From a virus, in the IMG/VR virus record IMGVR_UViG_3300050144_000056: 38,427 bases of DNA; one strand, written 5' to 3'. This document shows positions 15,958 through 30,365 of this stretch, piece by piece; the first letter of the stretch is position 1, and each line of letters starts with the position of its first letter. Below the pieces are notes generated by a model. The model searched no databases. It saw nothing but the letters and a program-made list of their open reading frames with translations, and was not told the origin of the DNA. The translations under genes and the position numbers were made by a program.

Positions 15958-15987
15958 AGTCTTACCTCGGGTTTTCCGTGATGTTCA

Positions 15988-16407: not shown

Positions 16408-16752
16408 CTATTTTAGCACTTCTGCATGCTTTAGTTTTTGTGTTTCACTGTCAAAAAACAATTTTAAATTTCCTTCTTGTTCTTTCCATTTTGATGTCTC
16501 TACAAATGGAGATGCAAAAATAATCAAAACAAAGTCGTTAAGTACAGATTTTTTTAATCTATATGTATTGTCTGGAGACCAAGTAGGATTATCTACAACC
16601 TCCCATGAAAATTCTGAATTTTTGTGCTCAATTACAGCACCATCAGCCCATGCTTTAATCAGCTCTGCATGCTTGTGTGGTTTCATTTTTTTCTGGTTGC
16701 ATTGGTATAGTAAATTATGGGCTTTTGGGTGGTTTATAAGCCATATTCGCAA
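16408..16752 (-). CDS. Hypothetical protein in an AT-rich cassette
   Basis: ORF with TTG start at 16752; alternative ATG at 16686 (MKPHKHAELIKAWADGAVIEHK...). Confidence 0.5.
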   Translation of the reverse strand: MRIWLINHPKAHNLLYQCNQKKMKPHKHAELIKAWADGAVIEHKNSEFSWEVVDNPTWSPDNTYRLKKSVLNDFVLIIFASPFVETSKWKEQEGNLKLFFDSETQKLKHAEVLK

Positions 16753-16980: not shown

Positions 16981-17023
16981 ACTTTACTTTAAAAAATTGT
17001 TTTTTCTATTAGGGTTTACCCTA
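16981..17023 (-). promoter_or_regulatory. Operator palindrome plus promoter
   Basis: TAGGGTTTACCCTA at 17010..17023; -35 position TAGAAA (17003..17008); 16-nt spacer; -10 TAAAGT (16981..16986). Confidence 0.55.
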
Positions 17024-17129
17024 GGTTTAGCAAAATAATTGCACCTACTATCGCAAAAGCAAACGCCACTCCGAACAAGCCTCCAGCCAGTAGCGCGTCT
17101 AGTTCACGGTCTTCGTGTTCTTCGTTCAT
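17016..17129 (-). CDS. Small membrane protein (37 aa)
   Basis: ATG at 17129, ATGA-coupled to the upstream gene. Hydrophobic C-terminus GGLFGVAFAFAIVGAIILLNLG. Confidence 0.45.
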   Translation of the reverse strand: MNEEHEDRELDALLAGGLFGVAFAFAIVGAIILLNLG

Positions 17130-17410
17130 GCTGTCTCCTTCGTTGGAACTGGAGCCCATTGCAATGTCTCGTCCTCTCCGTCGTTGTCTCGGATTGGGCG
17201 CATCCATTCATCAAGTCCGATGCTTTCTTGGCCGCCGCCTGTCACGTTGCTTGCTGCATCCAAAATCCAGCAAGGCTTATCAATGTGTAGCCAGTAACCT
17301 GCTCTGGCCAACTCATCTTTACTTGCCAAACGAAGGCACGTTACAAACCTGCCTTCGTTCCCTGCTCTGCTTCTCACAATCACCGCCAAATCACCTTGCT
17401 TGCAGTTCAT
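17126..17410 (-). CDS. Hypothetical protein (94 aa)
   Basis: ATGA coupling at both ends. Confidence 0.55.
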   Translation of the reverse strand: MNCKQGDLAVIVRSRAGNEGRFVTCLRLASKDELARAGYWLHIDKPCWILDAASNVTGGGQESIGLDEWMRPIRDNDGEDETLQWAPVPTKETA

Positions 17411-17652
17411 ACAGCCCCCACGTTAAAAATAGAATTCACGTTGCTAAAAATACTCGGCTTTTGCCCCACCGTATAGGTGTACTGCTTGTTCCTGCCGATA
17501 GTCTCCACACTCGCCACAGCCAGCTTACCCTGCCGATACAGGCTACTCAATGCGGCCTGCACCTGTCGCCTGCTCATGCCTGTTTTCTTGACGATGCGCT
17601 CACGGTCTGTAATGCCTGAGAGCATGCAGTTATAGACTATTTCCATTGTCAT
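17407..17652 (-). CDS. Winged-helix DNA-binding protein (putative)
   Basis: 81 aa; the HTH-like segment is ITDRERIVKKTGMSRRQVQAALSSLYRQGKL. Confidence 0.5.
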   Translation of the reverse strand: MTMEIVYNCMLSGITDRERIVKKTGMSRRQVQAALSSLYRQGKLAVASVETIGRNKQYTYTVGQKPSIFSNVNSIFNVGAV

Positions 17653-18104
17653 ACCGTCACCACCTCCGGCGCTTTGCTGCGCATTCTGTTAGTCGCCTTA
17701 GCGATAAATTTCTCATACTCACCACGGCTTACGCTTGTACGCTGTAGGTGATGCCACTCCATTAGCTCTCGGATTGAGTGCTTTTCCCCCTCTGTAATGT
17801 CCCACTTGCCCCATCGGTCATAGCGGTGTTTCAGCTTAATCAGCGAGAACTCAGCCACTTTGCAAGCTTGCATCACTTCAGGGCCTATGCCGTTACGTGC
17901 CATTGTCTCTGCTACTCCCAGCATTGCGCACAGTCCGTAATAGCCATTCAGGTCATCTACTCCTGCTACAAGGGCATCTAGGTAGGCTTGTTCGCCTCTC
18001 TGTAGCTCTGATAGTGGTGCGTCAGGGGTAATACAAGCCCCCTCGATTGCGAGGCTGATAGGATTCATTAGTTGATAGACTTTCCGCTTGCACTGCTTAC
18101 GCAT
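17649..18104 (-). CDS. Hypothetical protein (151 aa)
   Basis: ORF with ATG start, coupled to its neighbours. Confidence 0.5.
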   Translation of the reverse strand: MRKQCKRKVYQLMNPISLAIEGACITPDAPLSELQRGEQAYLDALVAGVDDLNGYYGLCAMLGVAETMARNGIGPEVMQACKVAEFSLIKLKHRYDRWGKWDITEGEKHSIRELMEWHHLQRTSVSRGEYEKFIAKATNRMRSKAPEVVTV

Positions 18105-18405
18105 TCCATAAACCTCGTTTCTTCAATTCTTCCACTGTCTTTAGGTGTGCCTTAGTCCACATTTCCCGCTTCTCTAATGCGCTCATCAAGTGCCCTTGGT
18201 CTAGGGCTGTATGGCATCGGCTGCACAAGGTAGCGCACTTGTCATCGCTCGCCTTGATTCCGCGCCCTTTGCCCTCTGATGCCCAATTGCTATGCGCCCC
18301 GCATTGGCTAGAGTCATCCCTGCCGCAGTTCTGGCACGGTATCGTGCGGTAAGCCTCCATCAGCTTTTTGCTGCGCACGTATTGGAATTTAGGTCGGGCT
18401 GTCAT
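18097..18405 (-). CDS. YbcO/DUF1364-like Cys/His-cluster protein (putative nuclease)
   Basis: The pattern CQNCG...CGAHSNW...GKGRGIKASD...LCSRCHTALDQG resembles the YbcO family as I recall it. Confidence 0.5.
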   Translation of the reverse strand: MTARPKFQYVRSKKLMEAYRTIPCQNCGRDDSSQCGAHSNWASEGKGRGIKASDDKCATLCSRCHTALDQGHLMSALEKREMWTKAHLKTVEELKKRGLWNA

Positions 18406-18641
18406 TTTGCCTTCATAGCCTTACGCTTATCTAAAATCACATGCGCCATTTTGTCTGTTAAATAGCCTTCAAGCATCAATCGTCGAAATACTGTGACAGA
18501 TACACCAAGCGCTTCAGTAGCTTTTGCCTCGGATCCAAGCTCATTGATTACGTTTTTGCAAATGGCTTGAAAAGGCTTTATTTGTAGGTCTGTTAAAACA
18601 GTAATGCGTCTGGTTGTCCGATCTCTTGCCAAGCTACTCAC
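18402..18641 (-). CDS. Small HTH protein (79 aa, putative)
   Basis: GTG start 6 nt after AAGGAG; HTH-like segment SEAKATEALGVSVTVFRRLM. Confidence 0.45.
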   Translation of the reverse strand: MSSLARDRTTRRITVLTDLQIKPFQAICKNVINELGSEAKATEALGVSVTVFRRLMLEGYLTDKMAHVILDKRKAMKAK

Positions 18642-18644
18642 ATT

Positions 18645-19052
18645 TCACTCCTTAAAAACAATCCCATGCTCCGCGCCCCATGCGTGAAGCCACTCTATAA
18701 ACTGACTGCCTTGCTCTTTAGTAAACTTTCGGGTTTGAAAGTCTAGTTGCACAATTCCGTCACCGTCTAGGTTCGGAATGATGCGACCACCAGCCATTTT
18801 GTAATCCTTGCAAAACTTTTGCACTAGCAATCGCTTCCAGTCTTTAGCGTCCCACTTTGCGCCTAGGTGTTGCGCTTGCTTGGCAATCTCACCAATCATT
18901 GCGTGGTATTTTTCGTTTTGTTCTGCCGTTCTTGATTGCTCATTGATTGTCAAAACAAGTCGATGACCAATGTCTAATTTTTCTTTGCATTGCTCCCAAA
19001 TGCTGCATATCAATTGGTGCGCTTGCTTCTTTTCGTTTAGATAAAAAATCAT
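18645..19052 (-). CDS. NinB/Orf-like recombination mediator (putative)
   Basis: 135 aa; RTAEQNEKYHAMIGEIAKQ and overall size resemble lambda NinB family proteins. Confidence 0.55.
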   Translation of the reverse strand: MIFYLNEKKQAHQLICSIWEQCKEKLDIGHRLVLTINEQSRTAEQNEKYHAMIGEIAKQAQHLGAKWDAKDWKRLLVQKFCKDYKMAGGRIIPNLDGDGIVQLDFQTRKFTKEQGSQFIEWLHAWGAEHGIVFKE

Positions 19053-19543
19053 CGCAAAAACTCAGGGCAATAAGTATGATATTTTTTCTTTCCATCTAAA
19101 TAAGCTTGATGCGCTAACTCCGCTGTTTTGTAGTAACCAAGACTGATATTTTTTCCAGAAGCTCTAATTTTTGATTGCCAAAGTTTGCTTTTTTTGTCAA
19201 AGTAAGCGCCCTTTAATCCAGATTGAGCTATAGATTTTTTTGCAACATTTTGAAAATTCTCAGATGCTTTTACGTCGTTTAAATTTTCTAATTTATTGTT
19301 TTGCCTATTTCCGTCAACATGGTCTATGTAAGCAGGAAAACTTCCATGCATATACAGCCATGCGAGCCTATGCATGTAATAAAGACGCCCATCAATGTGC
19401 ATTCTTAAATACCCATTTTTTGAAGGCTTTGCTACTACTATGCCGAGCTTTAAATTTGATACTTTTTTTAGTCTGTAAAAATTTCCTTGCTTTGGGCAAT
19501 AGAAAACAAGCTCTTTAAGTCTTTGCTGAGTTAAATTGTTCAT
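19049..19543 (-). CDS. HNH endonuclease with C-terminal AP2-like DNA-binding domain
   Basis: IDHVDGNRQNNKLENL (HNH_3 type) followed by GAYFDKKSKLWQSKIRASGKNISLGYYKTAELAHQAY (AP2 type). Strongly AT-rich. Confidence 0.8.
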   Translation of the reverse strand: MNNLTQQRLKELVFYCPKQGNFYRLKKVSNLKLGIVVAKPSKNGYLRMHIDGRLYYMHRLAWLYMHGSFPAYIDHVDGNRQNNKLENLNDVKASENFQNVAKKSIAQSGLKGAYFDKKSKLWQSKIRASGKNISLGYYKTAELAHQAYLDGKKKYHTYCPEFLR

Positions 19544-19573
19544 GATGCAATTATATCATGATACGCTCTTACA

Positions 19574-19759
19574 CTACCCGCATAGCGCCTGATTGCAAAG
19601 GTTCTGCACTGTCACCCATGCCTTGCCAATGTCCTGATTCTGGGCAATGTCCCGAATAGCTCTCAGGCTCTCGCGCAGAATCTCGATTTCCTGCTCGCGC
19701 TCCTCTGCCATGCGCTTGATGGTGTTTAGTGCGTCTTCGCTTACGTTGATGGTTTTCAT
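19574..19759 (-). CDS. Hypothetical protein (61 aa)
   Basis: ATGA-coupled to the upstream gene. Confidence 0.45.
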   Translation of the reverse strand: MKTINVSEDALNTIKRMAEEREQEIEILRESLRAIRDIAQNQDIGKAWVTVQNLCNQALCG

Positions 19760-20064
19760 GATTGGCCTTCTGCTTTTGCAATTGCTGCGATACCTGCCTG
19801 AAATGCTGCGCGCTGGTCATCGTGGATAAGGTCGGCCAGATCAAGCGAATGCGTAAGTGCTTTCAAAGCCTCCAAAAGCTCAGGCGCTGCGGCTATTAGT
19901 CGGGCGTCTGCTTCTTTTTTCACAGCTCCGTAGTGGTCACCATCAAATTCGTCGCCAACATAATGATTGCACAAAATTTCTTCGCCGTTGCTTGCGGTCA
20001 ACTCAAATAGATTGCAGCAAGGTTTGTATTTTGTAATCCAAGGTGCTTGTGTGTGTTTGCTCAT
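19756..20064 (-). CDS. Hypothetical protein (102 aa)
   Basis: Trimmed to the ATG at 20064 (MSKHTQAPW...), preceded by the conserved leader. Contains ARLIAAAPELLEALKAL, a motif common in phage early proteins. Confidence 0.55.
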   Translation of the reverse strand: MSKHTQAPWITKYKPCCNLFELTASNGEEILCNHYVGDEFDGDHYGAVKKEADARLIAAAPELLEALKALTHSLDLADLIHDDQRAAFQAGIAAIAKAEGQS

Positions 20065-20091
20065 TTCTCTCTCCGTGTTGTTGATAGCTGA

Positions 20092-20135
20092 ATTGTCTAG
20101 CACTTTTTCACGCTTGCGAATTAGGGGAAACCCTA
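20092..20135 (-). promoter_or_regulatory. Operator palindrome plus promoter
   Basis: TAGGGGAAACCCTA at 20122..20135; -35 TTCGCA (20115..20120); 17-nt spacer; -10 GACAAT (20092..20097). Confidence 0.6.
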
Positions 20136-20405
20136 GGTTTGTAAAATTTTTAGCGCCCTGAGTGCAGATTCCACGCTATCCACCATGCAAACAGGTAGCC
20201 CTTGCGCTTCCTCGGCTTGTTTTGCGTTCATTCCCTTGCGCCCGTAGCCTGTTTTTGGGTTTTTCACTTCCATGTAGCAGGTTCTCTCGCCTATCCACAC
20301 TTGCAGGTCATAGGGCTGGTGCACGATCTTGACCCGTGCGCCTGCTTTTCGTAGGGCCTGGACAACTTCGGCTTGATTTCCATCAACCCTGCGTGCGTAT
20401 CGCAT
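20133..20405 (-). CDS. VRR-NUC / PD-(D/E)XK-type nuclease (putative)
   Basis: 90 aa; VDGNQAEVVQALRKAG...YDLQVW...MEVK...NAKQ matches the D...E-x-K pattern of small phage VRR-NUC proteins. Confidence 0.55.
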   Translation of the reverse strand: MRYARRVDGNQAEVVQALRKAGARVKIVHQPYDLQVWIGERTCYMEVKNPKTGYGRKGMNAKQAEEAQGLPVCMVDSVESALRALKILQT

Positions 20406-20556
20406 TAAGCCTCTCCCTCACGCCCTTGATTAGCTCCAGCTCTGGAAATATCGTCTCGTAGTTCTTGAGTGCCCATCGCGCATAGTCCTCGTCAATCTTT
20501 TTTAGGCTCAGAATGTGGTCGATCAGCCGGTTTCGGAGTGTTGCTAGGGGGTGCAT
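20383..20556 (-). CDS. Hypothetical small protein (57 aa)
   Basis: Hand-translated as MHPLATLRNRLIDHILSLKK...; GGAG lies 6 nt upstream; below the ORF-track size cutoff. Confidence 0.35.
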   Translation of the reverse strand: MHPLATLRNRLIDHILSLKKIDEDYARWALKNYETIFPELELIKGVRERLNAIRTQG

Positions 20557-20643
20557 TTTTGCTCCATTTAATCAACTCCCATGCTTTGCTGAATGCTTCG
20601 TGGTCTGTTGGCCTTGGGGTTGAGCCCTTTCCTCCGTCGCTGG

Positions 20644-20811
20644 TCATAGTTCCTCCCAAAATTTCCATGTCCCAAATTCAATCTTCCAAAGGATGGAGAA
20701 CATAAAGACAACAGCCAAAGCGCCCAACAGCATGCCGAGATAGGTATAACCGTTAGCTCGAAAACCTAGCCAAATAGGCCAATAGATAAGCGTTGCCAGT
20801 GTGTATCTCAT
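20644..20811 (-). CDS. Small membrane protein (55 aa)
   Basis: Hand-translated as MRYTLATLIYWPIWLGF...LGMLLGALAVVFMFSILW...; AAGGAG RBS present. Confidence 0.45.
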   Translation of the reverse strand: MRYTLATLIYWPIWLGFRANGYTYLGMLLGALAVVFMFSILWKIEFGTWKFWEEL

Positions 20812-20942
20812 GTCTGCTCCTTTGCGCGTGCTGCGTCTCTAGGCAGTTTGATGATGTAGGTCATGTCAAATCCAATCCAATGAACAGAACTGAACCGAGC
20901 GAGGGCCATAGGGCCATGGGTTCGGCGTGTATGTGTAGCGCT

Positions 20943-21428
20943 TCATTTCGCCTCCGGTGGAGTTGGCAGGGTGCCTCCGTAGGTGCCCGCATATCTCCCG
21001 AGGTCGATAGTCCTTGGTTTAGGCTCCGCTTGCTTGGGTGCTGCGTTGTAGGTGTAGTTTTTTGTGAATAGCTCATGCTTTCCGACTGGAAGGCTGAGGT
21101 AATCAATAGTCCAATCTCTCTCGCGGACTATTATCTTTAGCGCTGCATTGGTTGGCGGCTCTTGCGCTTGCTCGGAAGCATCACGCACCGTCACAAAAAG
21201 TGAATTCACTAGGCTTGCGAGTTGCTCTGGCTCCAGCACATTGATGCCATTTGAATCACACCAACTGATGGCCGCATCCAGCATATCGTCTTCCAGCTCC
21301 ACCGGCTCTTGCGCTTGCTTGATGGCGGTGATGGCTGGACCGGCAATGGCTCCTGCTTGGTCGCCAAGTAGCCACAACTTTTCCAGCGCCTCCAGCGCAA
21401 GTGCTAGGGCTTCGTCTTTGGTGGTCAT
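20943..21428 (-). CDS. Hypothetical protein (161 aa)
   Basis: ATGA-coupled to the upstream gene. Confidence 0.55.
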   Translation of the reverse strand: MTTKDEALALALEALEKLWLLGDQAGAIAGPAITAIKQAQEPVELEDDMLDAAISWCDSNGINVLEPEQLASLVNSLFVTVRDASEQAQEPPTNAALKIIVRERDWTIDYLSLPVGKHELFTKNYTYNAAPKQAEPKPRTIDLGRYAGTYGGTLPTPPEAK

Positions 21429-21736
21429 TCCAATCCTTTCAGCGCAGATTGAATGCGCGTCAATCGTTCTTTGAGCTTTGTGTTTTCTTCGGCCAAAGCG
21501 TGATTTGCACGGCGCAATACTTCGGCATCAGTCGGGGTGCAGCCGGTAGGAATCGCTGCCAACAGTGCGCGGGAGTTTGTAGGTAAGCCTCGGCGCTTGA
21601 GAGCTTTACGGACTGCGCCATGAGACACGCCAAAGAAGTCTCCAACCTCGTCCAACGTCTTTCCCGTGAGCAGCATTCGGGTGTATTGCTCAACGTCACC
21701 AGTGCTGCGATTTCCTCGCTGTGGTGTGGTGGTCAT
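21425..21736 (-). CDS. HTH DNA-binding protein (putative)
   Basis: Trimmed to the ATG at 21736 (ATGA coupling); HTH-like segment TLDEVGDFFGVSHGAVRKALKRRG. Confidence 0.5.
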   Translation of the reverse strand: MTTTPQRGNRSTGDVEQYTRMLLTGKTLDEVGDFFGVSHGAVRKALKRRGLPTNSRALLAAIPTGCTPTDAEVLRRANHALAEENTKLKERLTRIQSALKGLE

Positions 21737-22008
21737 AGTGTTTCCTTCAGTTTGCGGATGGCGTCTGCTGCGCCACAGGTTCCATCTGCGAAGCCATCTG
21801 TCCATTCGTGCCCAGACCTCTTTTCGTCAGGCCAAAGGCGCTCGGAAAGGTTTGCAGCTTCCTCCAGCAAGTCGATCAGGGCTTGCTTGTCGTAGAGTGG
21901 GTGTGTTTTGTGGTGTGCATCAACTCGATGTGCTTTTCCTGCATCCGCTGTAGCGTGCCACCCTGTCGGCGTTTCGTATCTCCAAGCTACCGGCTCAGGC
22001 ATCTTCAT
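21733..22008 (-). CDS. Hypothetical protein (91 aa)
   Basis: ORF with ATG start in the operon chain. Confidence 0.5.
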   Translation of the reverse strand: MKMPEPVAWRYETPTGWHATADAGKAHRVDAHHKTHPLYDKQALIDLLEEAANLSERLWPDEKRSGHEWTDGFADGTCGAADAIRKLKETL

Positions 22009-22291
22009 GCTGGCCTCCCTTCACATATGGGTAAACGGCAAACCAAGGGCAGAAATAGTCGATGTCCAGCCAGCCTGCATATCGCGCTGGACGTTTTATA
22101 TACGTGAAAAATCCTCGCCGTTTTTTGTATCGAATGGCGTTGTCTTTTCGGAACTTGCCAACAATACGGTCACCCGCAAGAGTAAATTCAACCGTTATGT
22201 GATGCCCGTTATGCTGTTGGGTTACGGTTCCAACAACACGCCGTCCCCACTTTCCATCGTGACAAACAAAAACCTTCTTCCCTACTTTCAT
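21995..22291 (-). CDS. Hypothetical protein (98 aa)
   Basis: ATGA-coupled to the upstream gene. Confidence 0.5.
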   Translation of the reverse strand: MKVGKKVFVCHDGKWGRRVVGTVTQQHNGHHITVEFTLAGDRIVGKFRKDNAIRYKKRRGFFTYIKRPARYAGWLDIDYFCPWFAVYPYVKGGQHEDA

Positions 22292-22656
22292 TTCTGGCCT
22301 CCCTTGGCTGCGTCGATGGCGATGCGTAAGTTTGCAAAAGGGCCATCAATAGTCCAGCGATTACCTTCGTGCAGGTCTTGAAACCCATACGCTTCACATT
22401 GCGAATCAAGCCAATCCAGCCGCTCCGCATCGGCTTCCAGAGTCGCCAGCTTTGCAGCAAGGGCATCGCGCTCGGCTTGCAATGCGGACTTGTTCGCTAC
22501 AACCGCGCAATAGTGTTCAGTGTTTCGCTCAATCGTGGCCTTCAGCCGCTCGTTCTCTGCTTGCAGCGTTTGAATGGCTGCAACAACTTCTTGTGTAGAC
22601 ACATCAGCGTTATCGTGAAATTGATTTGTCTGCTTCAGTCGTTCAATCAGTGTCAT
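22288..22656 (-). CDS. Coiled-coil hypothetical protein (122 aa)
   Basis: Trimmed to the ATG at 22656 (ATGA coupling). A coiled coil is followed by RLDWLDSQ. Confidence 0.5.
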   Translation of the reverse strand: MTLIERLKQTNQFHDNADVSTQEVVAAIQTLQAENERLKATIERNTEHYCAVVANKSALQAERDALAAKLATLEADAERLDWLDSQCEAYGFQDLHEGNRWTIDGPFANLRIAIDAAKGGQK

Positions 22657-22925
22657 TTCTGCTCCTTGCGTGTGAATAGCTCTTTCCATGTGCGCTTGTG
22701 AGCATCCATCCAAGAGCCAGCGCCTTTATTCGCGCCAAGTGGGAATGCGTTTCCAAAGTCATCCAGCCACGCCACAGGCTTCTCCGCGAGCTGGCTTGCT
22801 GCTCCCTGAGCGTAGGCTTGGCGCATCGCTTTGAAAATCCGCTCCGTTGATATGGGAGGATTCTTGGTTGTGATGCCATTCGCTTCGTTGTAGATGCGTG
22901 TGCATTCATCGTCAGTCAGTAACAT
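22653..22925 (-). CDS. Hypothetical protein (90 aa)
   Basis: ATG at 22925, 6 nt after AGGAGG. Confidence 0.55.
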   Translation of the reverse strand: MLLTDDECTRIYNEANGITTKNPPISTERIFKAMRQAYAQGAASQLAEKPVAWLDDFGNAFPLGANKGAGSWMDAHKRTWKELFTRKEQK

Positions 22926-22954
22926 TCTCACCTCCTAAAAGTCTACCTATAAGC

Positions 22955-23149
22955 CTAGACAGTCCGTAAACCGCTAGGGATAGGCCAATTATCGTTAGTG
23001 CGTTCATTTTGTGAATTAGGGTTTACCCTAGCTAGTTCGTTTTCGCTCAGGTCTCCGGTCAGGAATAGCGCTTGATTGACTATGTGAGCGGGTAGGTCTG
23101 CACCTGCTTTACGTTGGTCTAGTAGGTTATGGGCTTCTGGGTGGTTCAT
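22955..23149 (-). CDS. Possible small ORF (MNHPEAHNLLDQRKAG...)
   Basis: ATG start. The N-terminal 9 codons recur at 16708..16734. The 3' part runs through the operator/promoter, so the real extent is uncertain. Confidence 0.3.
   Translation of the reverse strand: MNHPEAHNLLDQRKAGADLPAHIVNQALFLTGDLSENELARVNPNSQNERTNDNWPIPSGLRTV
22988..23030 (-). promoter_or_regulatory. Operator palindrome plus promoter
   Basis: TAGGGTTTACCCTA at 23017..23030; -35 TTCACA (23010..23015); 16-nt spacer; -10 GATAAT (22988..22993). Confidence 0.6.
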
Positions 23150-23420
23150 GCTTATTCAATTTAATTAATAAATCTCGTTGCTGCACATAAAGCCTTTCAA
23201 CAGCTTCCGACATTGCCACATAAAATTCATCGCAAATTCGCTCTGCTGAGTCACAGATTGCAACATCTCCAGCGCGGTCAACAAACCGCATTGCAATGTT
23301 TCCTAGCTCTGCTTCTTTTTTTAATAAGTCCCTCTCTAGGCGTAAAGCAGCATAAGCGGCAACCCATTGCACATTAGCGTCTAACAGTGCATCAAATGCA
23401 ATCTTTTCTTTTTTGTTCAT
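23127..23420 (-). CDS. Hypothetical protein (97 aa)
   Basis: ORF with ATG start. Confidence 0.5.
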   Translation of the reverse strand: MNKKEKIAFDALLDANVQWVAAYAALRLERDLLKKEAELGNIAMRFVDRAGDVAICDSAERICDEFYVAMSEAVERLYVQQRDLLIKLNKHEPPRSP

Positions 23421-23425
23421 GGCGT

Positions 23426-24046
23426 TTACTTACTTCCGCTGCCGTTGCAATCTGGACACTCCTGAACTCCACCTGCAAACTGCCCGCCAATCTCGCCTTC
23501 GCCCTTGCAGCACTCACATGTGCCATCCGGCAACGCGCTTGCCTTATGCTTGTTCAAAAATGCTTTGATGCGCTCATGCTCTAACTGCGCCAGTTTATAT
23601 TTACCACAATATTTGATGTCATCTACCGTTGCAGAGTAGTTAAGTAAAAAACCGTGCTCGACTTCAAATTCTTGATTGCTTACCAATGAATGAAGATACT
23701 TTGCAGATTCAATTTGAAGCAACCTATTCGGGGTTGGACTTCCATCTTCATATTTTGAAGTACTACCAAATGCGGCAACATTTAAAAGAACAGTTACAGC
23801 CGTCAATATTTTTTCATAGTTATATTGCTTGTTAAAAAATATCGCATCACCGCACTCTTTACAACGAGGTAATGCTTCTCCAGAAATAAATTCAACTTGC
23901 TCTTGCTGTAATTTCTTGATCGCCAAAATAGCCAAGATAGCTTTATTTGGCTCAATGCAATCTCGATGTTGCCCCATTTGGTTTAACAGCACTACAGCGC
24001 CTTTTAAAGCCGTAAACGCGAGTTCTAATACTTCATCTTTTGTCAT
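23426..24046 (-). CDS. Protein with C-terminal DnaJ-type zinc-finger motifs (206 aa)
   Basis: Two CxxCxGxG motifs, CECCKGEG and CPDCNGSG, at the C-terminus; the central part is AT-rich. Confidence 0.6.
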   Translation of the reverse strand: MTKDEVLELAFTALKGAVVLLNQMGQHRDCIEPNKAILAILAIKKLQQEQVEFISGEALPRCKECGDAIFFNKQYNYEKILTAVTVLLNVAAFGSTSKYEDGSPTPNRLLQIESAKYLHSLVSNQEFEVEHGFLLNYSATVDDIKYCGKYKLAQLEHERIKAFLNKHKASALPDGTCECCKGEGEIGGQFAGGVQECPDCNGSGSK

Positions 24047-24065
24047 CTCTCACTCCTAAAACTTC

Positions 24066-24109
24066 ACTGTACTTTTAACGGACTGCTTTGGGTATTGGGG
24101 TTTACCCTT
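24066..24109 (-). promoter_or_regulatory. Degenerate operator plus promoter
   Basis: TGGGGTTTACCCTT at 24096..24109; -35 position TACCCA (24089..24094); 17-nt spacer; -10 TACAGT (24066..24071). Confidence 0.5.
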
Positions 24110-24488
24110 GTCCAAACGATCTACGCAACGCTTGCAGCTTCTGCATGGCTTCGGCCTTGTCTCGCGCTACCTTTTGTTTTTCAGCCTCTGTAAGCTGTTT
24201 TTCAATCATGATGACAGGTGCGCGTTTAATAGGAGGCCCACCAAGGCACAAATCACGAAAGGCAATGCTAGAGGGTGGGAAGTTAGCGTTCATGCGCTTG
24301 AGGGCGTAATCCATGCTTTCCTTGCTTGTCAGATAAACGCCAATGTCATCCTTCCATACATCGCGGACAAGCTCAGGAGCTATGCCATCCCAATGACGCA
24401 TAAATGCTGCGCCGTAGGTAGCCCCCATGCGTCCAAAGATGTAGTCCAAGCCTTCATCCATCGTGCAATCAGCCAAGAAGTTTGACAT
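24102..24488 (-). CDS. Hypothetical protein downstream of the replication gene (128 aa)
   Basis: ATG at 24488, 6 nt after GGAGG. Its position suggests a replication accessory or loader role (inference only). Confidence 0.5.
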   Translation of the reverse strand: MSNFLADCTMDEGLDYIFGRMGATYGAAFMRHWDGIAPELVRDVWKDDIGVYLTSKESMDYALKRMNANFPPSSIAFRDLCLGGPPIKRAPVIMIEKQLTEAEKQKVARDKAEAMQKLQALRRSFGQG

Positions 24489-25113
24489 TTGAGCCTCCAA
24501 TCAATCCACGGGTTAAACCAGACAACACATTCTCATTGCGGCTTGGCTGGATAACGGACTTGTCTGCCACCCATTCAGCCTTAAACCCTCGCCAGCCTCT
24601 AGCGCAACACTCCCTCAGTGCGTCCTCTAGCGGCCAGCCAGCTTTGTCAGCTTCGCGCTTTATGCCATCAATGGCAGACTGCGTTATCGCTGCCCGCATG
24701 GTCTTGCGTGATTTTTTGAAGTCTTGCCAAACTTGAGTGGATACGCCTTCAGGCGCGTCTGTCTCTTTCTCTTTCTCTTTCTTTGTCTCTCTCTCTGTCT
24801 CTGTCTCTACACTATCAACTTGATATCGCTCTGATATCACGCTGATATCATCTTGTATCAGCCAGTTTTGCAGTGCATTACAGCTACTGATTACGTCTTT
24901 TTCAGGCATGCGAAGCCTGAAAGACAGATTCTTGATTGATGGCAGTTCTCCATCGTTTTCAGATGCGATAAGCCATAACATTACAAGCACTTTGGCAGAC
25001 TTTGCATCTAGCTCATGCCAATCCATGTCATCCAAAATATCGCGGTACAGCTTAATCCATGGCGGCTTACGATCTTTGAAGTGCTGATGTTTAGTCCAAT
25101 TTTTGATCTTCAT
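24469..25113 (-). CDS. Replication initiator-like protein with a DnaT-like C-terminal domain (putative)
   Basis: Trimmed to the ATG at 25113 (MKIKNWTKHQHFKDRKPPWIKLYRDILDD...). Acidic linker ETETERETKKEKEKE. C-terminus VWQDFKKSRK...GWRGFKAEW. Iterons lie inside the gene. Confidence 0.55.
   Translation of the reverse strand: MKIKNWTKHQHFKDRKPPWIKLYRDILDDMDWHELDAKSAKVLVMLWLIASENDGELPSIKNLSFRLRMPEKDVISSCNALQNWLIQDDISVISERYQVDSVETETERETKKEKEKETDAPEGVSTQVWQDFKKSRKTMRAAITQSAIDGIKREADKAGWPLEDALRECCARGWRGFKAEWVADKSVIQPSRNENVLSGLTRGLIGGSNVKLLG
24821..24860. repeat. Four iterons at exact 11-bp phasing (candidate origin)
   Basis: TGATATC at 24821, 24832 and 24843; TGTATCA at 24854; adjacent to a ~50-nt C/T-rich tract (24757..24809). 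Confidence 0.6.
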
Positions 25114-25445
25114 TTTTGAGACCTCCTCTTGTTTTTGTGGTGCGTATTGAAAATTGGCTTTAATCTTCTGATTAGCCTTATTTCTCGCATAGCCCAATCA
25201 CCAAGCCTCAAAGAACCGCTTGCTTTTATTGTTATACGTGTGTCGCTTGGCACTTCTTGCCATGGTGTGATGATTGATTTTCCATAGGAATACCTAAAAG
25301 CATGCCCACCAAATCTATTAGATAGGCTTGTTGTCTGTCCAACATAAACAAGGTCACCATCAAAATAGATTGCATAGACGCATGGAGCGTCAGGAAACAC
25401 TTTATCTTTACTTGGATAAAGCTGATAGTCTTTCCACCTAGACAT
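25110..25445 (-). CDS. GIY-YIG nuclease domain protein (homing-endonuclease-like)
   Basis: CVYAIYFDGDLVYVGQTTSLSNRFGGH matches GIY-(10-11)-YVG. AT-rich. ATGA-coupled to the replication gene. Confidence 0.7.
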   Translation of the reverse strand: MSRWKDYQLYPSKDKVFPDAPCVYAIYFDGDLVYVGQTTSLSNRFGGHAFRYSYGKSIITPWQEVPSDTRITIKASGSLRLGDWAMREIRLIRRLKPIFNTHHKNKRRSQK

Positions 25446-25455
25446 AAAACCCCAT

Positions 25456-25536
25456 AAAAAAAGGGCTACACCTGAAGTCTCATTCTTTCGAATGTTGGCG
25501 GACCGGTACAGTTCCGGCAGACTTCATGTGTAACCC
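25456..25536 (-). terminator. Branched hairpin with an 18-bp outer stem followed by T7
   Basis: Minus strand: GGGTTACACATGAAGTCT pairs with AGACTTCAGGTGTAGCCC (1 mismatch, 1 G-U). An inner CATTC-GAAA-GAATG hairpin is present. TTTTTTT follows, then the GIY-YIG ATG 10 nt later. Confidence 0.6.
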
Positions 25537-25582
25537 TACTGTGTTAAGCCCCGCCAAGGGCCGATAGCATAATTTTAGCAGA

Positions 25583-25792
25583 CTATGGCTTGCGAGTCAC
25601 TACCCGATAGACATAAAACCATCGCCCGTTATCGGGGTAGCGCTTGGTCTTGGTTAGCTCTTCGTTAGGGCGTAGCTGCTCCCCAATTCGACGCCAGCTA
25701 CAGACGCTTATTCCCGTCATTTGTAGCTCAAGGGTAGACATACCGCGCTTTTTAAGCAGGGCGATCAGTTTGCGGCCTTGGGTGGTTTTCAT
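25583..25792 (-). CDS. Small basic protein, possibly DNA-binding (69 aa)
   Basis: ATG start; the segment KLIALLKKRGMSTLELQMTG is winged-helix-like. Confidence 0.45.
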   Translation of the reverse strand: MKTTQGRKLIALLKKRGMSTLELQMTGISVCSWRRIGEQLRPNEELTKTKRYPDNGRWFYVYRVVTRKP

Positions 25793-25802
25793 GATTCATC
25801 CT

Positions 25803-26483
25803 TTAAATCAATGGCTCTTGTATTTGCTTGGGCGGCTCTGGTGCGAACAGTTGTCCTTGTGCTACTGCTTGCTCTATGAGCTTGCAGGCAATGTCGAAAT
25901 ACTTGGGTTCGCGCTCAATGCCGATAAAGGAGCAGCCTAGCTGGATTGCGGCTACAGCGCAACTCCCACTGCCTAGGAATGGGTCAAGCACCGTTGAGAT
26001 AAATGGCAGATATTCAATGCACCAGCGATAGAGCGCGACTGGCCTCTCGCATGGATGACAAGTTTCTGCAAGCCTTGATACGTCAAAGTTTGTCCAAGGG
26101 ATACGGACTATTTCCGTTTTCTGAAAATGGGTGCAACTAGCAATGTCACACTTGCTGAAGTTGGGCATAGGCTGCGCCTTGTCCCAAATAATTGCGCCGC
26201 CACGATCTTCAAAGCAGTTGAAGAAATTTGCACCCCAAATAATCCGGTGCTTTGATTTCTCTTTGATGAGACTGAAAAATTCATGCGAGGGTGAAGTCTC
26301 ATTCCACTGAACCAACTCACCCGCAAGATCGCCGCGCCCCCGAATGTTTCCAGTTGTCTGAACAAAATTACCCACTCCAAATGGCGGGTCAGTAATCACC
26401 GCATCCACCTTTGGCAGCGTTGGCAGCACATCCATGCAGTCGCCCAAATAGAGCGTTGCGTTTCCGATTCTTACGGGCTCCAT
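25803..26483 (-). CDS. DNA methyltransferase (N6-adenine/N4-cytosine type, beta-class motif order)
   Basis: Motif IV (ITDPPFG) is near the N-terminus and motif I (LDPFLGSGSCAVAA) near the C-terminus. Confidence 0.85.
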   Translation of the reverse strand: MEPVRIGNATLYLGDCMDVLPTLPKVDAVITDPPFGVGNFVQTTGNIRGRGDLAGELVQWNETSPSHEFFSLIKEKSKHRIIWGANFFNCFEDRGGAIIWDKAQPMPNFSKCDIASCTHFQKTEIVRIPWTNFDVSRLAETCHPCERPVALYRWCIEYLPFISTVLDPFLGSGSCAVAAIQLGCSFIGIEREPKYFDIACKLIEQAVAQGQLFAPEPPKQIQEPLI

Positions 26484-26593
26484 TAGCAGGGTACTCCGTG
26501 GCTCTTGATATGCGAATGATCAGACCCCGGACGATAGAACGTAGGCTGTGGGTCGCCGTCACCAGTCCGATACGTTCCGCGCCCGATCACATA

Positions 26594-26827
26594 CTAACGA
26601 ATCCCCGCTGTGTTCTTTTGGTCAAGCGCTTGTCGGCCCATGACTGTAATGTGGTATGCGCCCTCAGCCTCAAAACAGTAGCCAGCCTCGACCAACTGAG
26701 TTAGCCAACCCTTAAGAACTTCGGGGTGTAGCGGTGCGTTGTAGTCTCCGTGGGTAAAGTATTGTTCACGGCGGGGGGATTGCGCGATAGATGTGAGCAT
26801 CCGGCGCAGGCGTTCATTGAGTTTCAT
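26594..26827 (-). CDS. Small winged-helix-like protein (77 aa)
   Basis: Trimmed to the ATG at 26827 (ATGA coupling). Confidence 0.45.
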   Translation of the reverse strand: MKLNERLRRMLTSIAQSPRREQYFTHGDYNAPLHPEVLKGWLTQLVEAGYCFEAEGAYHITVMGRQALDQKNTAGIR

Positions 26828-27201
26828 TGCTTTACCTCCCAAAAAGAAACTGATTCAGAGTAATAACCATTGCTTTCGCCAAACCAGCGAATGTCCACAT
26901 ATCCTTTGATTGTTGACAGCTTGTAAAAAGTCCAAGTTTGACTTTCTGGCTCGTATTCATGTGTAAAACATTCTGGTGTTTCATGGCTAAAGTTTTCTTC
27001 GGCCATGAGAATAGGGCTTCCAATCAAGTCCAAAAGATCACCTGTAATGCTTTCAATGGTGACACTTTCGCAGCAATCTTGCTGATGGCTCATTTCAAAA
27101 ACTTGACCTTTGTCATTGGTGAAAATGAGTCTTTCATCATTTATGTTTTGAATGCTAGTTAACGTCTGCCCCAAAAGGCTGTTGAATTCGATGTAGCTCA
27201 T
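26824..27201 (-). CDS. Hypothetical protein, first gene of the minus-strand early operon (125 aa)
   Basis: ATG at 27201 preceded by the conserved leader AACGGAGCGACTA. Confidence 0.55.
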   Translation of the reverse strand: MSYIEFNSLLGQTLTSIQNINDERLIFTNDKGQVFEMSHQQDCCESVTIESITGDLLDLIGSPILMAEENFSHETPECFTHEYEPESQTWTFYKLSTIKGYVDIRWFGESNGYYSESVSFWEVKQ

Positions 27202-27229
27202 TAGTCGCTCCGTTGTTAAAGAGGCTTGA

Positions 27230-27303
27230 ATCATTGCACAGTTCGGCGGGTATCGGTATTAGGGTTTCCCCTAATGGTCGGCATCAAATTTATGCTAGAC
27301 AAT
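27230..27303. promoter_or_regulatory. Divergent control region: one palindrome flanked by two outward promoters
   Basis: TAGGGTTTCCCCTA at 27260..27273. Plus-strand promoter: TGGTCG-17-GACAAT (27275..27303). Minus-strand promoter: TACCGA-17-AATGAT (27258..27230). Confidence 0.55.
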
Positions 27304-27332
27304 TCACCACATCAACAAACCGGAGCGAACAG

Positions 27333-27536
27333 ATGCAAATCCCAAAAAGGTTGCTGAAGCATCCCGCAGTTTTAAGAGTTGAAGCTGGAGCCGACGCTGG
27401 AACCGATTACAGATTCTTTGTGTATTTGAAAGCTGGATATGTATTTACAGAAAGCAAGTGCGAAGGGACTAACGCTACTTGCTGCGGTGTCAATTCATAT
27501 GAGCAATTTATTCAACTAACCCCGATTTTTAAATAA
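27333..27536 (+). CDS. Hypothetical protein (67 aa)
   Basis: ATG at 27333 preceded by the leader CCGGAGCGAACAG. Confidence 0.5.
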   Translation: MQIPKRLLKHPAVLRVEAGADAGTDYRFFVYLKAGYVFTESKCEGTNATCCGVNSYEQFIQLTPIFK

Positions 27537-27540
27537 AACT

Positions 27541-27584
27541 TAGGGTAAACACCTATTCGCAAGCATCAAAAGCACATAGACAAT
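27541..27584 (+). promoter_or_regulatory. Degenerate operator plus promoter
   Basis: TAGGGTAAACACCTA at 27541..27555; -35 TTCGCA (27556..27561); 17-nt spacer; -10 GACAAT (27579..27584). Confidence 0.55.
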
Positions 27585-27612
27585 TCACCACATCAACAAA
27601 CCGGAGCGACAA

Positions 27613-27813
27613 ATGCACGAAAAACAAGTCTTAGCCGTACTTCATAGCATCCGCGCTATGGACACTATCTATCCTGAGGACATCGCCGCTATCTGCGCCG
27701 CTTTGTCTGCCAAAGTACACGCACAGACTAGCAGTCATCCCATGATGGCAGCGGCTGTGGATTCTTTGGACGATCTGCACATCTACATTGCTGACTATCT
27801 GGGGGAAGTATGA
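27613..27813 (+). CDS. Hypothetical protein (66 aa)
   Basis: ATG after the conserved leader; ATGA-coupled to the next gene. Confidence 0.55.
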   Translation: MHEKQVLAVLHSIRAMDTIYPEDIAAICAALSAKVHAQTSSHPMMAAAVDSLDDLHIYIADYLGEV

Positions 27814-28892: not shown

Positions 28893-28894
28893 TC

Positions 28895-29688: not shown

Positions 29689-29691
29689 TGT

Positions 29692-29717: not shown

Positions 29718-30194
29718 ATGAAGCCGTGCATTGCTTGTCATATCCAAAAACCAATTGAGTGTTTTTATAAACACAAAGCCATGAAAGATGGTCATCTAAA
29801 CAAATGTATTGAGTGCTGTAAAAAGCATGAGCATTTGCGCAGAGTTTCAAAAATTGAAGAAATACGAGCTTACGACAGAATGCGCGGTTCTTTGCCTCAC
29901 AGACTTGAAGCTAATAGGCTTAGGCAAAAAACTGAGCAAGGAAAATTAATTCACTTGCAGGCAAATGAGAGATATAAAGAAAAATACAAGAACAGGCATG
30001 CTGCTAGGCACATTGTTGGAAATGCACTAAGGGATGGAAAAATATTTAAGCAGCCTTGCTTTGTTTGCGGAGACCCAAAGACTGAAGGACATCACCCAGA
30101 CTACGACAGGCCGCTAGAGGTTGTATGGCTTTGCATGAAACATCACAAAGAGGCACACAAAATGACAAACGAGCTACTTCGGAACCAAGGGTAA
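29718..30194 (+). CDS. HNH endonuclease
   Basis: N-terminal Cys clusters (CIACH..., CIECC) and C-terminal CFVCGDPKTEGHHPDYDRPLEVVWLCMKHHKEAH. AT-rich. Confidence 0.8.
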   Translation: MKPCIACHIQKPIECFYKHKAMKDGHLNKCIECCKKHEHLRRVSKIEEIRAYDRMRGSLPHRLEANRLRQKTEQGKLIHLQANERYKEKYKNRHAARHIVGNALRDGKIFKQPCFVCGDPKTEGHHPDYDRPLEVVWLCMKHHKEAHKMTNELLRNQG

Positions 30195-30200
30195 ACACCT

Positions 30201-30365
30201 ATGCCAATCATGACGCAACGGTTATATGATTTCCTTGAGGATGTGAAAGCAAACATATCTCACACGGAAACAATCGCGGCATTGAGGGCGATTGCCCTTG
30301 ATGCTCTATTACTTGCACAGGAGCTAGAAAATGCACAAACACGATCTGATAGTGATGAGAGCTAG
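30201..30365 (+). CDS. Hypothetical small protein (54 aa)
   Basis: Hand-translated as MPIMTQRLYDFLEDVKANISHTETIAALRAIALDALLLAQELENAQTRSDSDES. Confidence 0.35.
   Translation: MPIMTQRLYDFLEDVKANISHTETIAALRAIALDALLLAQELENAQTRSDSDES

Follow-up and report, generated by a model that had tools for sequence, protein, structure and literature searches.

A short palindrome, TAGGG-N4-CCCTA, most likely co-ordinates phage gene expression through one small phage-encoded protein, as judged from the sequence of the window (the whole 38,427-nucleotide stretch of viral DNA analysed, IMG/VR record IMGVR_UViG_3300050144_000056) and its relatives. The palindrome is read here as an operator for a dimer of the winged-helix protein wHTH-A, centred near -43.5 beside sigma-70-type promoters, from which the dimer would activate these promoters and autoregulate P_L, the promoter of its own gene. 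We give this reading a probability of about 0.6.

Palindrome modules and their register

Four exact copies of TAGGGNNNNCCCTA occur in the window (17010, 20122, 23017 and 27260), compared with a mean of 0.00 in 100 dinucleotide-preserving shuffles, and TAGGG-N4-CCCTA has the highest repeat count among the 5-N-5 palindromes of the 38-kb window. A loose search allowing two mismatches gives 15 matches against 9.0 expected, which is no enrichment by itself. Two further sites that the original prediction called degenerate are genuine variants: AAGGGTAAACCCCA at 24096 on the minus strand and, at 27541, a 15-bp form, TAGGGTAAACACCTA, that is seen again in relatives. The window was also scanned with a position-weight matrix trained on 34 modules from the relatives only. 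Above 12 bits it recovers the six known sites (in seven orientations) and adds AAGGGTAAACACCTA at 30187-30201 on the plus strand, with zero matches across ~25 kb of structural and lysis genes. All six predicted positions are upheld, and the list was incomplete, with 30187 lying outside the range that it covered. The seven putative operators and eight promoter-like sites all fall within the 17-30 kb early/replication region, where the gene array is long and co-directional and the palindromes lie at its gene boundaries; four of the modules (17010, 20122, 23017 and 24096) are oriented along the minus strand. The sites and their promoter-like elements are as follows.

17010..17023, minus: palindrome of module F, TAGGGTAAACCCTA (matrix 32.8 bits); the TAA stop of the upstream ORF 17016-17207 is at its centre
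16981..17008, minus: promoter-like element of module F, TAGAAA (17008-17003)-16-TAAAGT (16986-16981); leader AAGTGAAGTTTCAGGAGTGAGAA, then ATG 16961
20122..20135, minus: palindrome of module E, TAGGGTTTCCCCTA (40.4 bits); its TAG is the stop of gene 20133-20405
20092..20120, minus: promoter-like element of module E, TTCGCA (20120-20115)-17-GACAAT (20097-20092); leader ending in ATCAACAACACGGAGAG, then ATG 20064
23017..23030, minus: palindrome of module D, TAGGGTAAACCCTA (36.4 bits); inside the 3' part of ORF 22955-23149(-)
22988..23015, minus: promoter-like element of module D, TTCACA-16-GATAAT; the next gene starts at 22925
24096..24109, minus: degenerate palindrome of module C, AAGGGTAAACCCCA (25.3 bits); the stop codon of gene 24102-24500 is at its centre
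24066..24094, minus: promoter-like element of module C, TACCCA (24094-24089)-17-TACAGT (24071-24066); class-2 leader, then ATG 24046
27260..27273, both strands: central palindrome of the divergent control region; a -10-like hexamer lies exactly 24 nt away on each side
27275..27303, plus: P_R1, TGGTCG-17-GACAAT (27298-27303); 33-nt conserved leader, then ATG 27333
27230..27258, minus: P_L, TACCGA-17-AATGAT (27235-27230) with TGc before the -10 (extended -10 format); its putative targets are the DUF7448 gene (ATG 27201), then the winged-helix gene
27541..27555, plus: 15-bp variant palindrome of module B, TAGGGTAAACACCTA (23.8 bits); variant shared with L055, L066 and L135
27556..27584, plus: P_R2, TTCGCA-17-GACAAT (27579-27584); leader identical to that of P_R1, then ATG 27613
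30187..30201, plus: seventh site, AAGGGTAAACACCTA (14.3 bits); the stop codon of gene 29718-30194 is at its centre
up to 30230, plus: promoter-like element of the seventh site, TGCCAA-17-TATGAT (30225-30230)

The orthologue of the module C site in L131/L132 is AAGGGTAAACCCTA, and the seventh site, which is followed on its 3' side by a small conserved ORF and two hairpins (30278-30305 and 30420-30445), is kept in L055, L135 and L144. The claim that every site is intergenic or overlaps a stop codon is slightly off at 23017, where ORF 22955-23149(-) reads through. At 23017 and 30187, small ORFs begin directly after the palindrome and overlap the putative -35/-10, which weighs against the promoter reading; ORF 22912-23007, likely a membrane peptide, overlaps these elements in module D. 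Module F is the final module ahead of small genes, terS and the structural operon. The original prediction described all of these promoters as early; module F at 17010 possibly supplies the late operon, in which case the regulon would extend beyond early genes.

The palindrome lies 23-24 nt upstream of a -10-like hexamer at every site in the window, which places its centre near -43.5 if transcription starts ~7 nt past the -10, in agreement with the predicted centre near -43. A -10-like hexamer occurs at this distance from a random position in 2.2% of cases per strand (4.4% for either strand). The clade has 30 distinct exact palindromes, of which 28 hold the register. Across 42 distinct modules the spacers diverge, yet there are no indels other than the 16/17 alternation. 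The predicted 1-nt gap between palindrome and -35 hexamer is found at the 14-bp sites; in the 15-bp variants the hexamer directly abuts the palindrome. The -35 hexamers, several of which had been described as poor, follow a consensus T-W-C-N-C-A that is non-canonical throughout, with G at position 3 in one of 34 modules, and the -10 hexamers of the target promoters score 4/6. These scores use sigma-70 preferences that are assumed for the host; TTCACA-16-GATAAT of module D is the closest match among the window modules (10/12). The modules continue with a Shine-Dalgarno sequence and ATG 25-35 nt past the -10, and the two predicted classes of conserved leader are confirmed: the copies of one, 33 nt long, are identical, and those of the other, 36 nt long, share 89% identity. 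The single 27260 site faces two divergent promoters symmetrically, and a constant 62 bp separates the divergent -10 hexamers in all 8 distinct control regions, N5 variants included.

About 20 related uncultivated phage contigs retain the palindrome, the 23-24-nt distance and the Shine-Dalgarno/ATG while spacer sequences diverge; close relatives share descent, which makes their modules less than fully independent as evidence. This pattern supports the predicted set of promoter modules under one palindrome-binding factor, as far as sequence comparison can indicate.

The candidate regulator wHTH-A

Five small HTH proteins had been nominated as possible binders, among which that encoded at 26594-26827(-) is most likely the best candidate: it is a winged helix, and its gene travels with the palindrome down to ~42% protein identity.

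26483..26827, minus: wHTH-A gene, candidate operator-binding protein, winged helix; 77 codons (26594-26827) to an in-frame TAG at 26596-26594

Homologues of wHTH-A are 110-114 aa long. As a point against this candidate, the in-frame TAG of the window cuts off the most conserved motif of the family, and the 36 intact codons beyond it encode the family's conserved C-terminal tail. Pfam HTH_45 is matched by 42 of 53 family members; Pfam has no entry dedicated to the family, and PHROG yields no match. The AF2 model has a mean pLDDT of 78.8, with ten-residue blocks over residues 1-70 averaging 79-97, and is a winged helix with the MotA N-terminal domain, a PhiH1 repressor-like protein, MarR and PadR as nearest solved folds. 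As a counterpoint to activation, MarR- and PadR-like winged-helix proteins are usually repressors.

Each of the 16 viral-contig loci whose wHTH-A homologue is close (68% identity or more) carries palindrome modules, as do L128-L130. In these loci, wHTH-A is the first gene behind a palindrome-bearing promoter, and in most close relatives it is the first one to follow the divergent palindrome. Among distant homologues (42-52% identity), six have TAGG(G/T)-N4-6-CCCTA in the promoter region of their own operon and a seventh has a degenerate copy; these come from other samples, including a TARA ocean scaffold. Some cases speak against the link: the box is absent in one wHTH-A subgroup (L146-148 and L222-223), and L048, a 10.6-kb fragment, has the divergent palindrome without the wHTH-A gene. 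The other conserved small HTH protein (25583-25792) is missing from L055, L066 and L135, all of which have modules.

Proposed circuit and alternative explanations

In the proposed circuit, a sigma-70-type host RNA polymerase would read the operator-adjacent promoters. P_L would fire unaided from its extended -10 (TGnAATGAT); many relatives' P_L also has an xxGACA or TTGACT -35. A bound wHTH-A dimer would then activate the remaining promoters by touching RNA polymerase from -43.5, as Mor and C do, and would autoregulate P_L. The sequence comparison itself establishes the motif with its register and conservation, and the pairing of motif and wHTH-A gene; binding by wHTH-A, the positions of the transcription starts and the sign of regulation are what we infer here. 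The non-canonical -35 hexamers and the fixed register incline us towards activation over repression.

It is possible, if doubtful, that wHTH-A is instead a repressor at the same operator, acting in Cro-like early shut-off, as a maintenance repressor with dispersed operators or as a roadblock at gene boundaries. MarR, PadR and PhiH1-repressor-like folds among its nearest structures are consistent with repression, as are operators at gene boundaries along one long co-directional array. The operator also abuts the -35-position hexamer, where a winged dimer could block sigma region 4 or the alpha C-terminal domain, and in distant relatives 2-4 nt separate it from a near-consensus TTGACT -35 of the regulator operon, which fits negative autoregulation. 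However, the operator overlaps the -10 or inferred start at no site, repression does not need a register fixed to 1 bp over 42 modules, and the target promoters already look intrinsically weak. Integrase, partition genes and other lysogeny functions are all absent from the window's main ORFs in Pfam and PHROG scans, and a search of 185,579 species genomes found no prophage copy of the wHTH-A gene. A host transcription factor, such as a global regulator, whose site was adopted by diverse phages of that host is unlikely. A 21-nt core with flank and centre (TAGGGTTTCCCCTAATTCNCA) does occur as single copies in more distant phage contigs, and the wHTH-A gene is absent from the examined stretches of several of these. 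Class II CRP/FNR sites have a comparable 5-N4-5 layout and a position near -42, a resemblance that would suit such a factor by analogy. Nevertheless, a one-genome-per-species pattern scan gives 12 matches against ~35 expected on a rough estimate, which is at or below chance; none of the 12 has the promoter register, there is no sign of a host regulon, and the box pairs with the phage wHTH-A gene in highly dissimilar contigs and environments.

A role in RNA, as a hairpin at gene ends that serves termination or attenuation, processing or, in read-through transcripts, boxB-like antitermination, is scarcely credible, even with sites at or over the stop codons of upstream genes and a GAAA tetraloop in one orientation. 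At -3.5 to -6.4 kcal/mol (z 0.0 to -2.2) the hairpin is weak, and it lacks a U-tract; its stem is shorter in the 15-bp variants, and half-site sequences are conserved, with over 40 instances showing not one compensatory change. At 27260 the copy separates two divergent promoters and stands upstream of the inferred start of each, and L001 and L065 have separate canonical terminator hairpins ahead of the palindrome; all of these features argue for action at the DNA level. For a terminator the hairpin is too weak and lacks the U-tract. It is very unlikely that the module is mainly a recombination or shuffling cassette whose conservation reflects spread by homologous recombination. ORF 27333-27536 is bracketed by the identical 33-nt promoter/leader repeats, different relatives have different genes upstream of module D, the DUF7448 gene is inserted directly after P_L in this window only, and relatives differ in their genes on the right side of the control region. 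There is also precedent in the PeSL cassettes of T4-type phages, in which small variable genes are reported to lie between repeated early-promoter modules that contain a short palindrome and that appear to promote the shuffling of genes (PMC2839356, PMC4122927). In the phage studied here the palindrome precedes the -35 position, would be too weak a terminator and is tied to a specific regulator gene. Recombination does not explain half-sites and a 1-bp register kept despite diverging 17-nt spacers, or why the tie to the wHTH-A gene recurs in unrelated contexts, and shuffling is more naturally read as something that repeated promoter modules bring about than as a rival account of them.

Comparison with known regulatory systems

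The top structural match of the wHTH-A model is the N-terminal domain of T4 MotA (1bja, E = 6.7e-3, TM 0.48/0.57), a weak match that is typical for any winged helix; wHTH-A and MotA have no sequence-detectable homology. MotA acts by sigma appropriation, replacing -35 recognition at middle promoters; it needs AsiA, and its box is at -30 and is not palindromic. P1 C1 operators and the "stoperators" of cluster A mycobacteriophages are many copies of one short operator, dispersed over the genome at gene boundaries and recognised by one phage protein, but they are asymmetric, have no fixed -43.5 register and act by repression or roadblock in lysogeny, whereas the site here is a palindrome locked to a promoter. 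At lambda OR, the gene of an autoregulating protein (cI/Cro) lies beside a divergent control region with palindromic operators, and a dimer adjoining the -35 can serve one promoter as activator and another as repressor. The wHTH-A gene likewise adjoins a divergent palindromic control region. Unlike the tripartite OR, this phage has a single operator, or two spaced operators, and reuses the same operator at five further promoters distant from the switch; lysogeny functions were not found in it and the protein fold differs.

The favoured model is activation with the geometry of Mu Mor and C by a non-homologous protein, plus autoregulation. Mor and C bind as dimers to a dyad element that is centred at -43.5 and consists of two 5-bp inverted repeats, and their promoters, several of which form one regulon, are without a typical -35 (PMC4390567, PMC2582627). 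The phage 14-bp dyad is similarly near -43.5 by its geometry and its -35-position hexamers are non-canonical. In contrast to Mor and C, activation in this phage is inferred only, wHTH-A is an HTH_45-type winged helix with a conserved disordered tail (the ~50 main ORFs scanned in the window have no Pfam Mor match), the element is 14-15 bp rather than 16 bp, one site serves two divergent promoters, and the regulator's own promoter also has a site. A circuit of this kind is already familiar, and the comparison supports the case well.

Palindrome sites and their promoter register

The 14-bp palindrome TAGGG-N4-CCCTA occurs in the window as exact copies of TAGGGNNNNCCCTA at 17010, 20122, 23017 and 27260, compared to a shuffle mean of 0.00, and TAGGGNNNNCCCTA is the most repeated 5-N-5 palindrome of the genome. 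Matching with two mismatches gives no enrichment by itself, so that context decides which variants of the palindrome count. A position-weight matrix trained on 34 modules from relatives only (a module being the palindrome with its -35-position hexamer, -10 hexamer and leader) exceeds a cut-off of 12 bits at the six sites of the original prediction (seven orientations) and at 30187-30201(+), and nowhere else in the window. All six sites are thus recovered, but the list was incomplete by one. Variant sites and associated features are as follows.

Palindrome variants and features beside the palindromes
24096, minus strand: variant palindrome, reading AAGGGTAAACCCCA
27541: variant palindrome in the 15-bp (N5) form, reading TAGGGTAAACACCTA
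30187-30445, plus strand: seventh palindrome/promoter unit, at the end of the rightward operon
22912-23007, minus strand: hydrophobic 31-codon ORF MNALTIIGLSLAVYGLSRLIGRLLGGENVTD, with its start 9 nt after the 23017 palindrome

The claim that every site is intergenic or overlaps a stop codon needs correction at 23017, which lies inside the 3' part of ORF 22955-23149(-); at 30187, a conserved small ORF begins at the edge of the palindrome. ORF 22912-23007(-) is without a Shine-Dalgarno sequence and overlaps the putative -35/-10 region of the 23017 module. In this frame, relatives differ mainly by synonymous or conservative substitutions, with ATA for ATG in one subgroup, and this synonymous-rich pattern suggests that it is probably a real gene. 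The 30187 palindrome/promoter is followed by the small conserved ORF (30201-30365) and by hairpins at 30278-30305 and 30420-30445, and the unit could be a source of a short transcript.

Every site carries, in the direction of its downstream gene, a -35-position hexamer, a 16-17-nt spacer and a -10-like hexamer. The distance from palindrome end to -10 hexamer is 23-24 nt at 8/8 promoter-like units, against a background of 2.2% per strand for a -10-like hexamer at this distance from random positions. The -35-position hexamer follows after 1 nt, as predicted, in the 14-bp form but after 0 nt in the 15-bp form. With a transcription start assumed about 7 nt after the -10 hexamer (starts are inferred), the palindrome would extend from -50 to -37 with its centre at -43.5, in agreement with the predicted centre near -43. 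The -10 hexamers are GACAAT, GATAAT, TACAGT, TAAAGT and TATGAT, and the consensus at the -35 position is T-W-C-N-C-A; one of 34 modules has G as its third base. A generic promoter and terminator scan gave no enrichment, and at 9 of 12 matches to the sigma-70 consensus (-35/-10, 16-18 bp apart) it passes only the 23017 module; in the other modules the -10 hexamer is acceptable but the -35 hexamer poor. The constant spacing and the downstream Shine-Dalgarno sequence and ATG support a putative promoter function. An alternative -10 reading, TGcTAGACA, was rejected because it has no T at -7 and a 15-nt spacer.

Both predicted leader classes proved to be real repeats (D8 and D9). A 33-nt promoter/leader segment is 100% identical at 27296-27328 and 27577-27609 and flanks ORF 27333-27536, which suggests recent gain of this ORF by recombination between promoter modules. 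Leaders of many modules (e.g., 27304-27332 and 20065-20091), also on the distant viral contigs L220 and L224, share the motif CATCAACAA(A/C)C..GGAG, possibly as a translation enhancer or a conserved initial transcribed sequence.

Genome context and conservation in relatives

The first and last 127 nt of the window (1-127 and 38301-38427) are an identical direct repeat, due to circular assembly or to a direct terminal repeat, so that the window represents an entire phage genome (~38.3 kb) whose ends overlap. Its genes include those for portal, large and small terminase subunits, tail proteins, amidase, holin and endolysin, and a replication/recombination region encodes an O-like replication protein, Erf, NinB, HNH and GIY-YIG nucleases, and a DNA methyltransferase. 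No lysogeny function, integrase included, was recognised when the main ORFs were scanned against Pfam and PHROG. A near-identity search of GenBank phages gave no match to the window; the portal protein is 29-39% identical to portals of Bradyrhizobium, Myxococcus (Mx8/Mx9), Stenotrophomonas and Brucella phages. Genes run leftward from ~27200 round to ~30570 and a short operon runs rightward (27333-30365), which makes 27201-27333 a divergent control region.

Several other features were observed in the leftward region. No relatives were found for ORF 23426-24046. A small GIY-YIG-like ORF (25110-25445(-)) lies between a 69-aa HTH-like gene and the replication gene and is preceded by a terminator-like hairpin at 25448-25467. 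Within the replication gene (24469-25197), at ~24780-24870(-), a GA-rich tract comes after three to four repeats resembling TGATATCA; the arrangement looks like an origin of lambda type, in which iterons lie within the initiator gene. Between the small genes after the 17010 module and the small terminase gene, ~440 nt (15960-16410(-)) have no convincing ORF; this stretch contains a T-arm-like GGTTCAATTCC and is partly conserved in relatives. Searches for tRNA and Rfam families, which included it, returned no tRNA and no significant Rfam match.

Viral contigs were scanned with the neighbouring proteins and the candidate regulator, which yielded ~20 contigs of the same clade, all with modules at orthologous places. 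Across 42 distinct modules the palindrome, its flanking A and T, the -10 hexamer and the spacing are conserved, while spacer sequence and flanks diverge; among the 30 distinct exact palindromes of the clade, 28 show a -10-like hexamer 23-24 nt away. The two -10 hexamers of a divergent control region are separated by 62 bp in all eight distinct regions compared, with a 14-bp and a 15-bp palindrome alike, which indicates that the 15-bp form is a conserved variant of half-site spacing and not decay. The original observation is therefore confirmed and extended to seven sites, eight promoter-like units and clade-wide conservation.

Further features occur beside the modules of some contigs. In L001 (a relative, IMGVR_UViG_3300020045_001670), an ORF at ~275-550, right of the control region, consists nearly entirely of Gly/Tyr/Ser/Asp repeats (GSGYGYGYGS...); after it come a terminator and a palindrome module, in this order. 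Some distant contigs have a second element next to the palindrome: an everted CCCTATTAGGG lies just upstream of it in L158 and L198, and the divergent region of L224 (547-593) holds a pair of palindromes with 32 bp between them.

As RNA, the palindrome would form hairpins of -3.5 to -6.4 kcal/mol with no U-tract after them, and an intrinsic (Rho-independent) terminator was rejected on both grounds. At 27260 the palindrome precedes both divergent promoters, and these properties together suggest that the element acts in DNA. Relatives L001 and L065 have a canonical terminator hairpin and T-run just 5' of the palindrome, which indicates that the palindrome is part of the promoter module and not the terminator.

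The candidate regulator wHTH-A and its co-occurrence with the palindrome

ORF 26594-26827(-), which encodes the candidate operator-binding protein wHTH-A, was one of five small HTH proteins nominated originally, and it is the one for which a winged-helix prediction and co-occurrence with the palindrome now point to a role. Its product is 77 aa long, whereas homologues have 110-114 aa. Codon 78 is an in-frame TAG (26596-26594) that is CAG or AAG in all homologues; the following 36 codons (26483-26596(-)) are intact, end in a TAATG overlap with the methylase start codon, and encode the most conserved motif of the family, RPGSDHSHIKSxGxxC. TAG is an ordinary stop elsewhere in the genome (e.g., gene 20133-20405), and the wHTH-A TAG would be either a recent nonsense mutation, an assembly error or a site of read-through. 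A nonsense mutation would leave a DNA-binding domain without its tail.

The wHTH-A family is without a Pfam family of its own, and searches of PHROGs, GenBank phages and one genome per species found no match; against PDB sequences nothing was significant (best E = 0.47, designed TPR proteins). A full-database profile search for the family gave 54 clusters at 50% identity; the wider family alignments (A2 and A3) were too divergent for locus scans. Pfam HTH_45 (PF14947, winged helix) matches 42 of 53 aligned members weakly to moderately (best E = 4.1e-7). AF2 with a 53-sequence alignment predicts a winged helix over residues 1-70 (mean pLDDT of 79-97 in ten-residue blocks; helices H5-16, H21-25 and H35-48, strands E51-54 and E57-60, helix H62-69) and a low-confidence tail; a run with 17 close sequences only was unusable (pLDDT 47). 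Foldseek retrieved only winged-helix proteins (MotA N-terminal domain, PhiH1 repressor-like, MarR, PadR and Sso10a), all at E >= 6.7e-3. The model thus has the predicted features of a winged-helix fold, namely a three-helix bundle and a beta-hairpin wing.

In every close relative, wHTH-A is the first gene after a palindrome-bearing promoter with a conserved ...CCGCCGAACTGTGCAATGAT... core, and this palindrome is, in most of them, part of a divergent control region. In this genome only, a DUF7448 gene (26824-27201(-)) lies between the minus-strand promoter P_L and wHTH-A, which directly follows P_L in relatives; comparison of the loci indicates that the DUF7448 gene is an insertion.

The palindrome is present in 16/16 viral-contig loci with a close wHTH-A homologue, and also in L128-L130. 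Among more distant contexts it occurs in six of eight distinct ones, with a degenerate copy in another (the contig of family member P0018). The six contigs encode members with 42-52% identity (P0019, P0020, P0021, P0023, P0025 and P0028), come from other samples (one is a TARA ocean scaffold) and carry, in the operon's promoter region, TAGG(G/T)-N4-6-CCCTA, mostly with a -10-like hexamer at 22-24 nt; roughly estimated, a 300-nt region would hold such a match by chance in ~3% of cases. This distant co-occurrence is the strongest evidence for wHTH-A as the putative binder. Exceptions are the fragment L048, which has a divergent palindrome and no wHTH-A gene, and a subgroup of loci (L146-L148, L222 and L223) with a 42-44% regulator homologue. 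The latter have no TAGGG palindrome; TGTAA-N6-TTACA palindromes occur in their promoter regions and a Cro-like 77-aa gene lies upstream of the regulator homologue, which may represent a switch of different specificity.

The other nominated proteins fared less well. HTH protein 25583-25792 is a weaker candidate because it is absent from the module-carrying relatives L055, L066 and L135; ORF 21425-21805, with a weak Sigma70_r4 match, is conserved only in L203; ORF 18402-18641 has no homologues in relatives; and the remaining HTH-like ORFs are not conserved in the clade. The replication protein was also set aside as binder, having iteron-like repeats of its own. We estimate a probability of roughly 75-80% that the palindrome is the operator of this phage protein at real promoters, and wHTH-A can be named as the probable regulator with fair confidence. 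The predicted organisation of promoter modules under one factor is supported by modules conserved across the clade and linked to a specific candidate regulator.

Mode of control and comparison with known systems

If the palindrome is such an operator, activation of weak promoters is about twice as likely as pure repression. The palindrome never overlaps the -10 hexamer or the inferred start, and its distance to the -10 hexamer is fixed within 1 bp; this register and the T-W-C-N-C-A at the -35 position count in favour of activation, and with non-canonical -35 and 4/6 -10 hexamers these promoters should be weak alone. The regulator's own promoter looks self-sufficient: P_L has TGn before its -10 hexamer, and relatives have GAGACA, TAGACA or TTGACT as -35 hexamer. 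Pure repression by the operator-bound protein, the less favoured reading, would suit the fold class of wHTH-A, whose members are mostly repressors, and the abutment of operator and -35 hexamer, notably at the strong P_L-type promoters of distant relatives, for which negative autoregulation is the simplest reading.

Binding by a host factor, for example at a CRP/FNR-type class II site, would fit the divergent palindrome of L048 in a fragment that lacks the wHTH-A gene, and the extended motif found singly in more distant phage contigs, where the stretches examined have no wHTH-A gene. However, a scan of one genome per bacterial species gave 12 matches, about or below chance by a rough estimate and none in promoter register; we consider a host factor very unlikely. 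Operator function does not compete with a reading of the modules as a recombination or shuffling cassette, which would be a consequence of repeated promoter modules. The bracketing of ORF 27333-27536 by identical repeats would fit such shuffling, as would the occurrence of module D (23017) after different upstream genes in different relatives. The PeSL cassettes of T4-type phages, repeated promoter/stem-loop motifs, are a parallel to these modules (PMC2839356, PMC4122927).

If the operator reading holds, the phage would have a compact, fully specified regulon: a single operator sequence, eight promoters and a candidate regulator from an unannotated family, which would serve a clade of uncultivated phages without a characterised relative. 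It could become a test case for winged-helix activation from -43.5, as well as for divergent promoters that are activated symmetrically, and the operator could mark promoters and early regions in related metagenomic contigs. A control circuit of this kind is already well known in phages; the case is clean and testable and not surprising, and leaves current concepts of phage gene control unchanged.

A more far-reaching joint reading, which we regard as tentative and rather doubtful, is that the 110-114-aa winged-helix proteins are an undescribed family of phage activators with the role of Mor/C (the dyad at -43.5 replacing -35 recognition) and an unrelated fold. Their near-invariant tail would contact RNA polymerase, two divergent promoters would be driven at once by a single dimer, and almost the entire non-structural programme of this widespread clade of uncultivated phages would be under one operator type. 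The TAG of this genome would then give a tail-less, DNA-binding-only form with altered (repressing) activity.

Mor and C of phage Mu bind as dimers to 5-bp inverted repeats with the dyad centred at -43.5, at promoters without a typical -35 (PMC4390567, PMC2582627). The likeness, which also counts in favour of activation, extends to the palindrome centre of -43.5 (from inferred starts) and to a recognisable -10 hexamer with no typical -35 hexamer. Unlike Mor and C, the candidate here is a predicted winged helix, and none of the ~50 main ORFs of the window has a Pfam match to the Mor family. The system would work like Mor/C-type activation, or possibly as a Cro-type autoregulated switch, while being a member of neither family.
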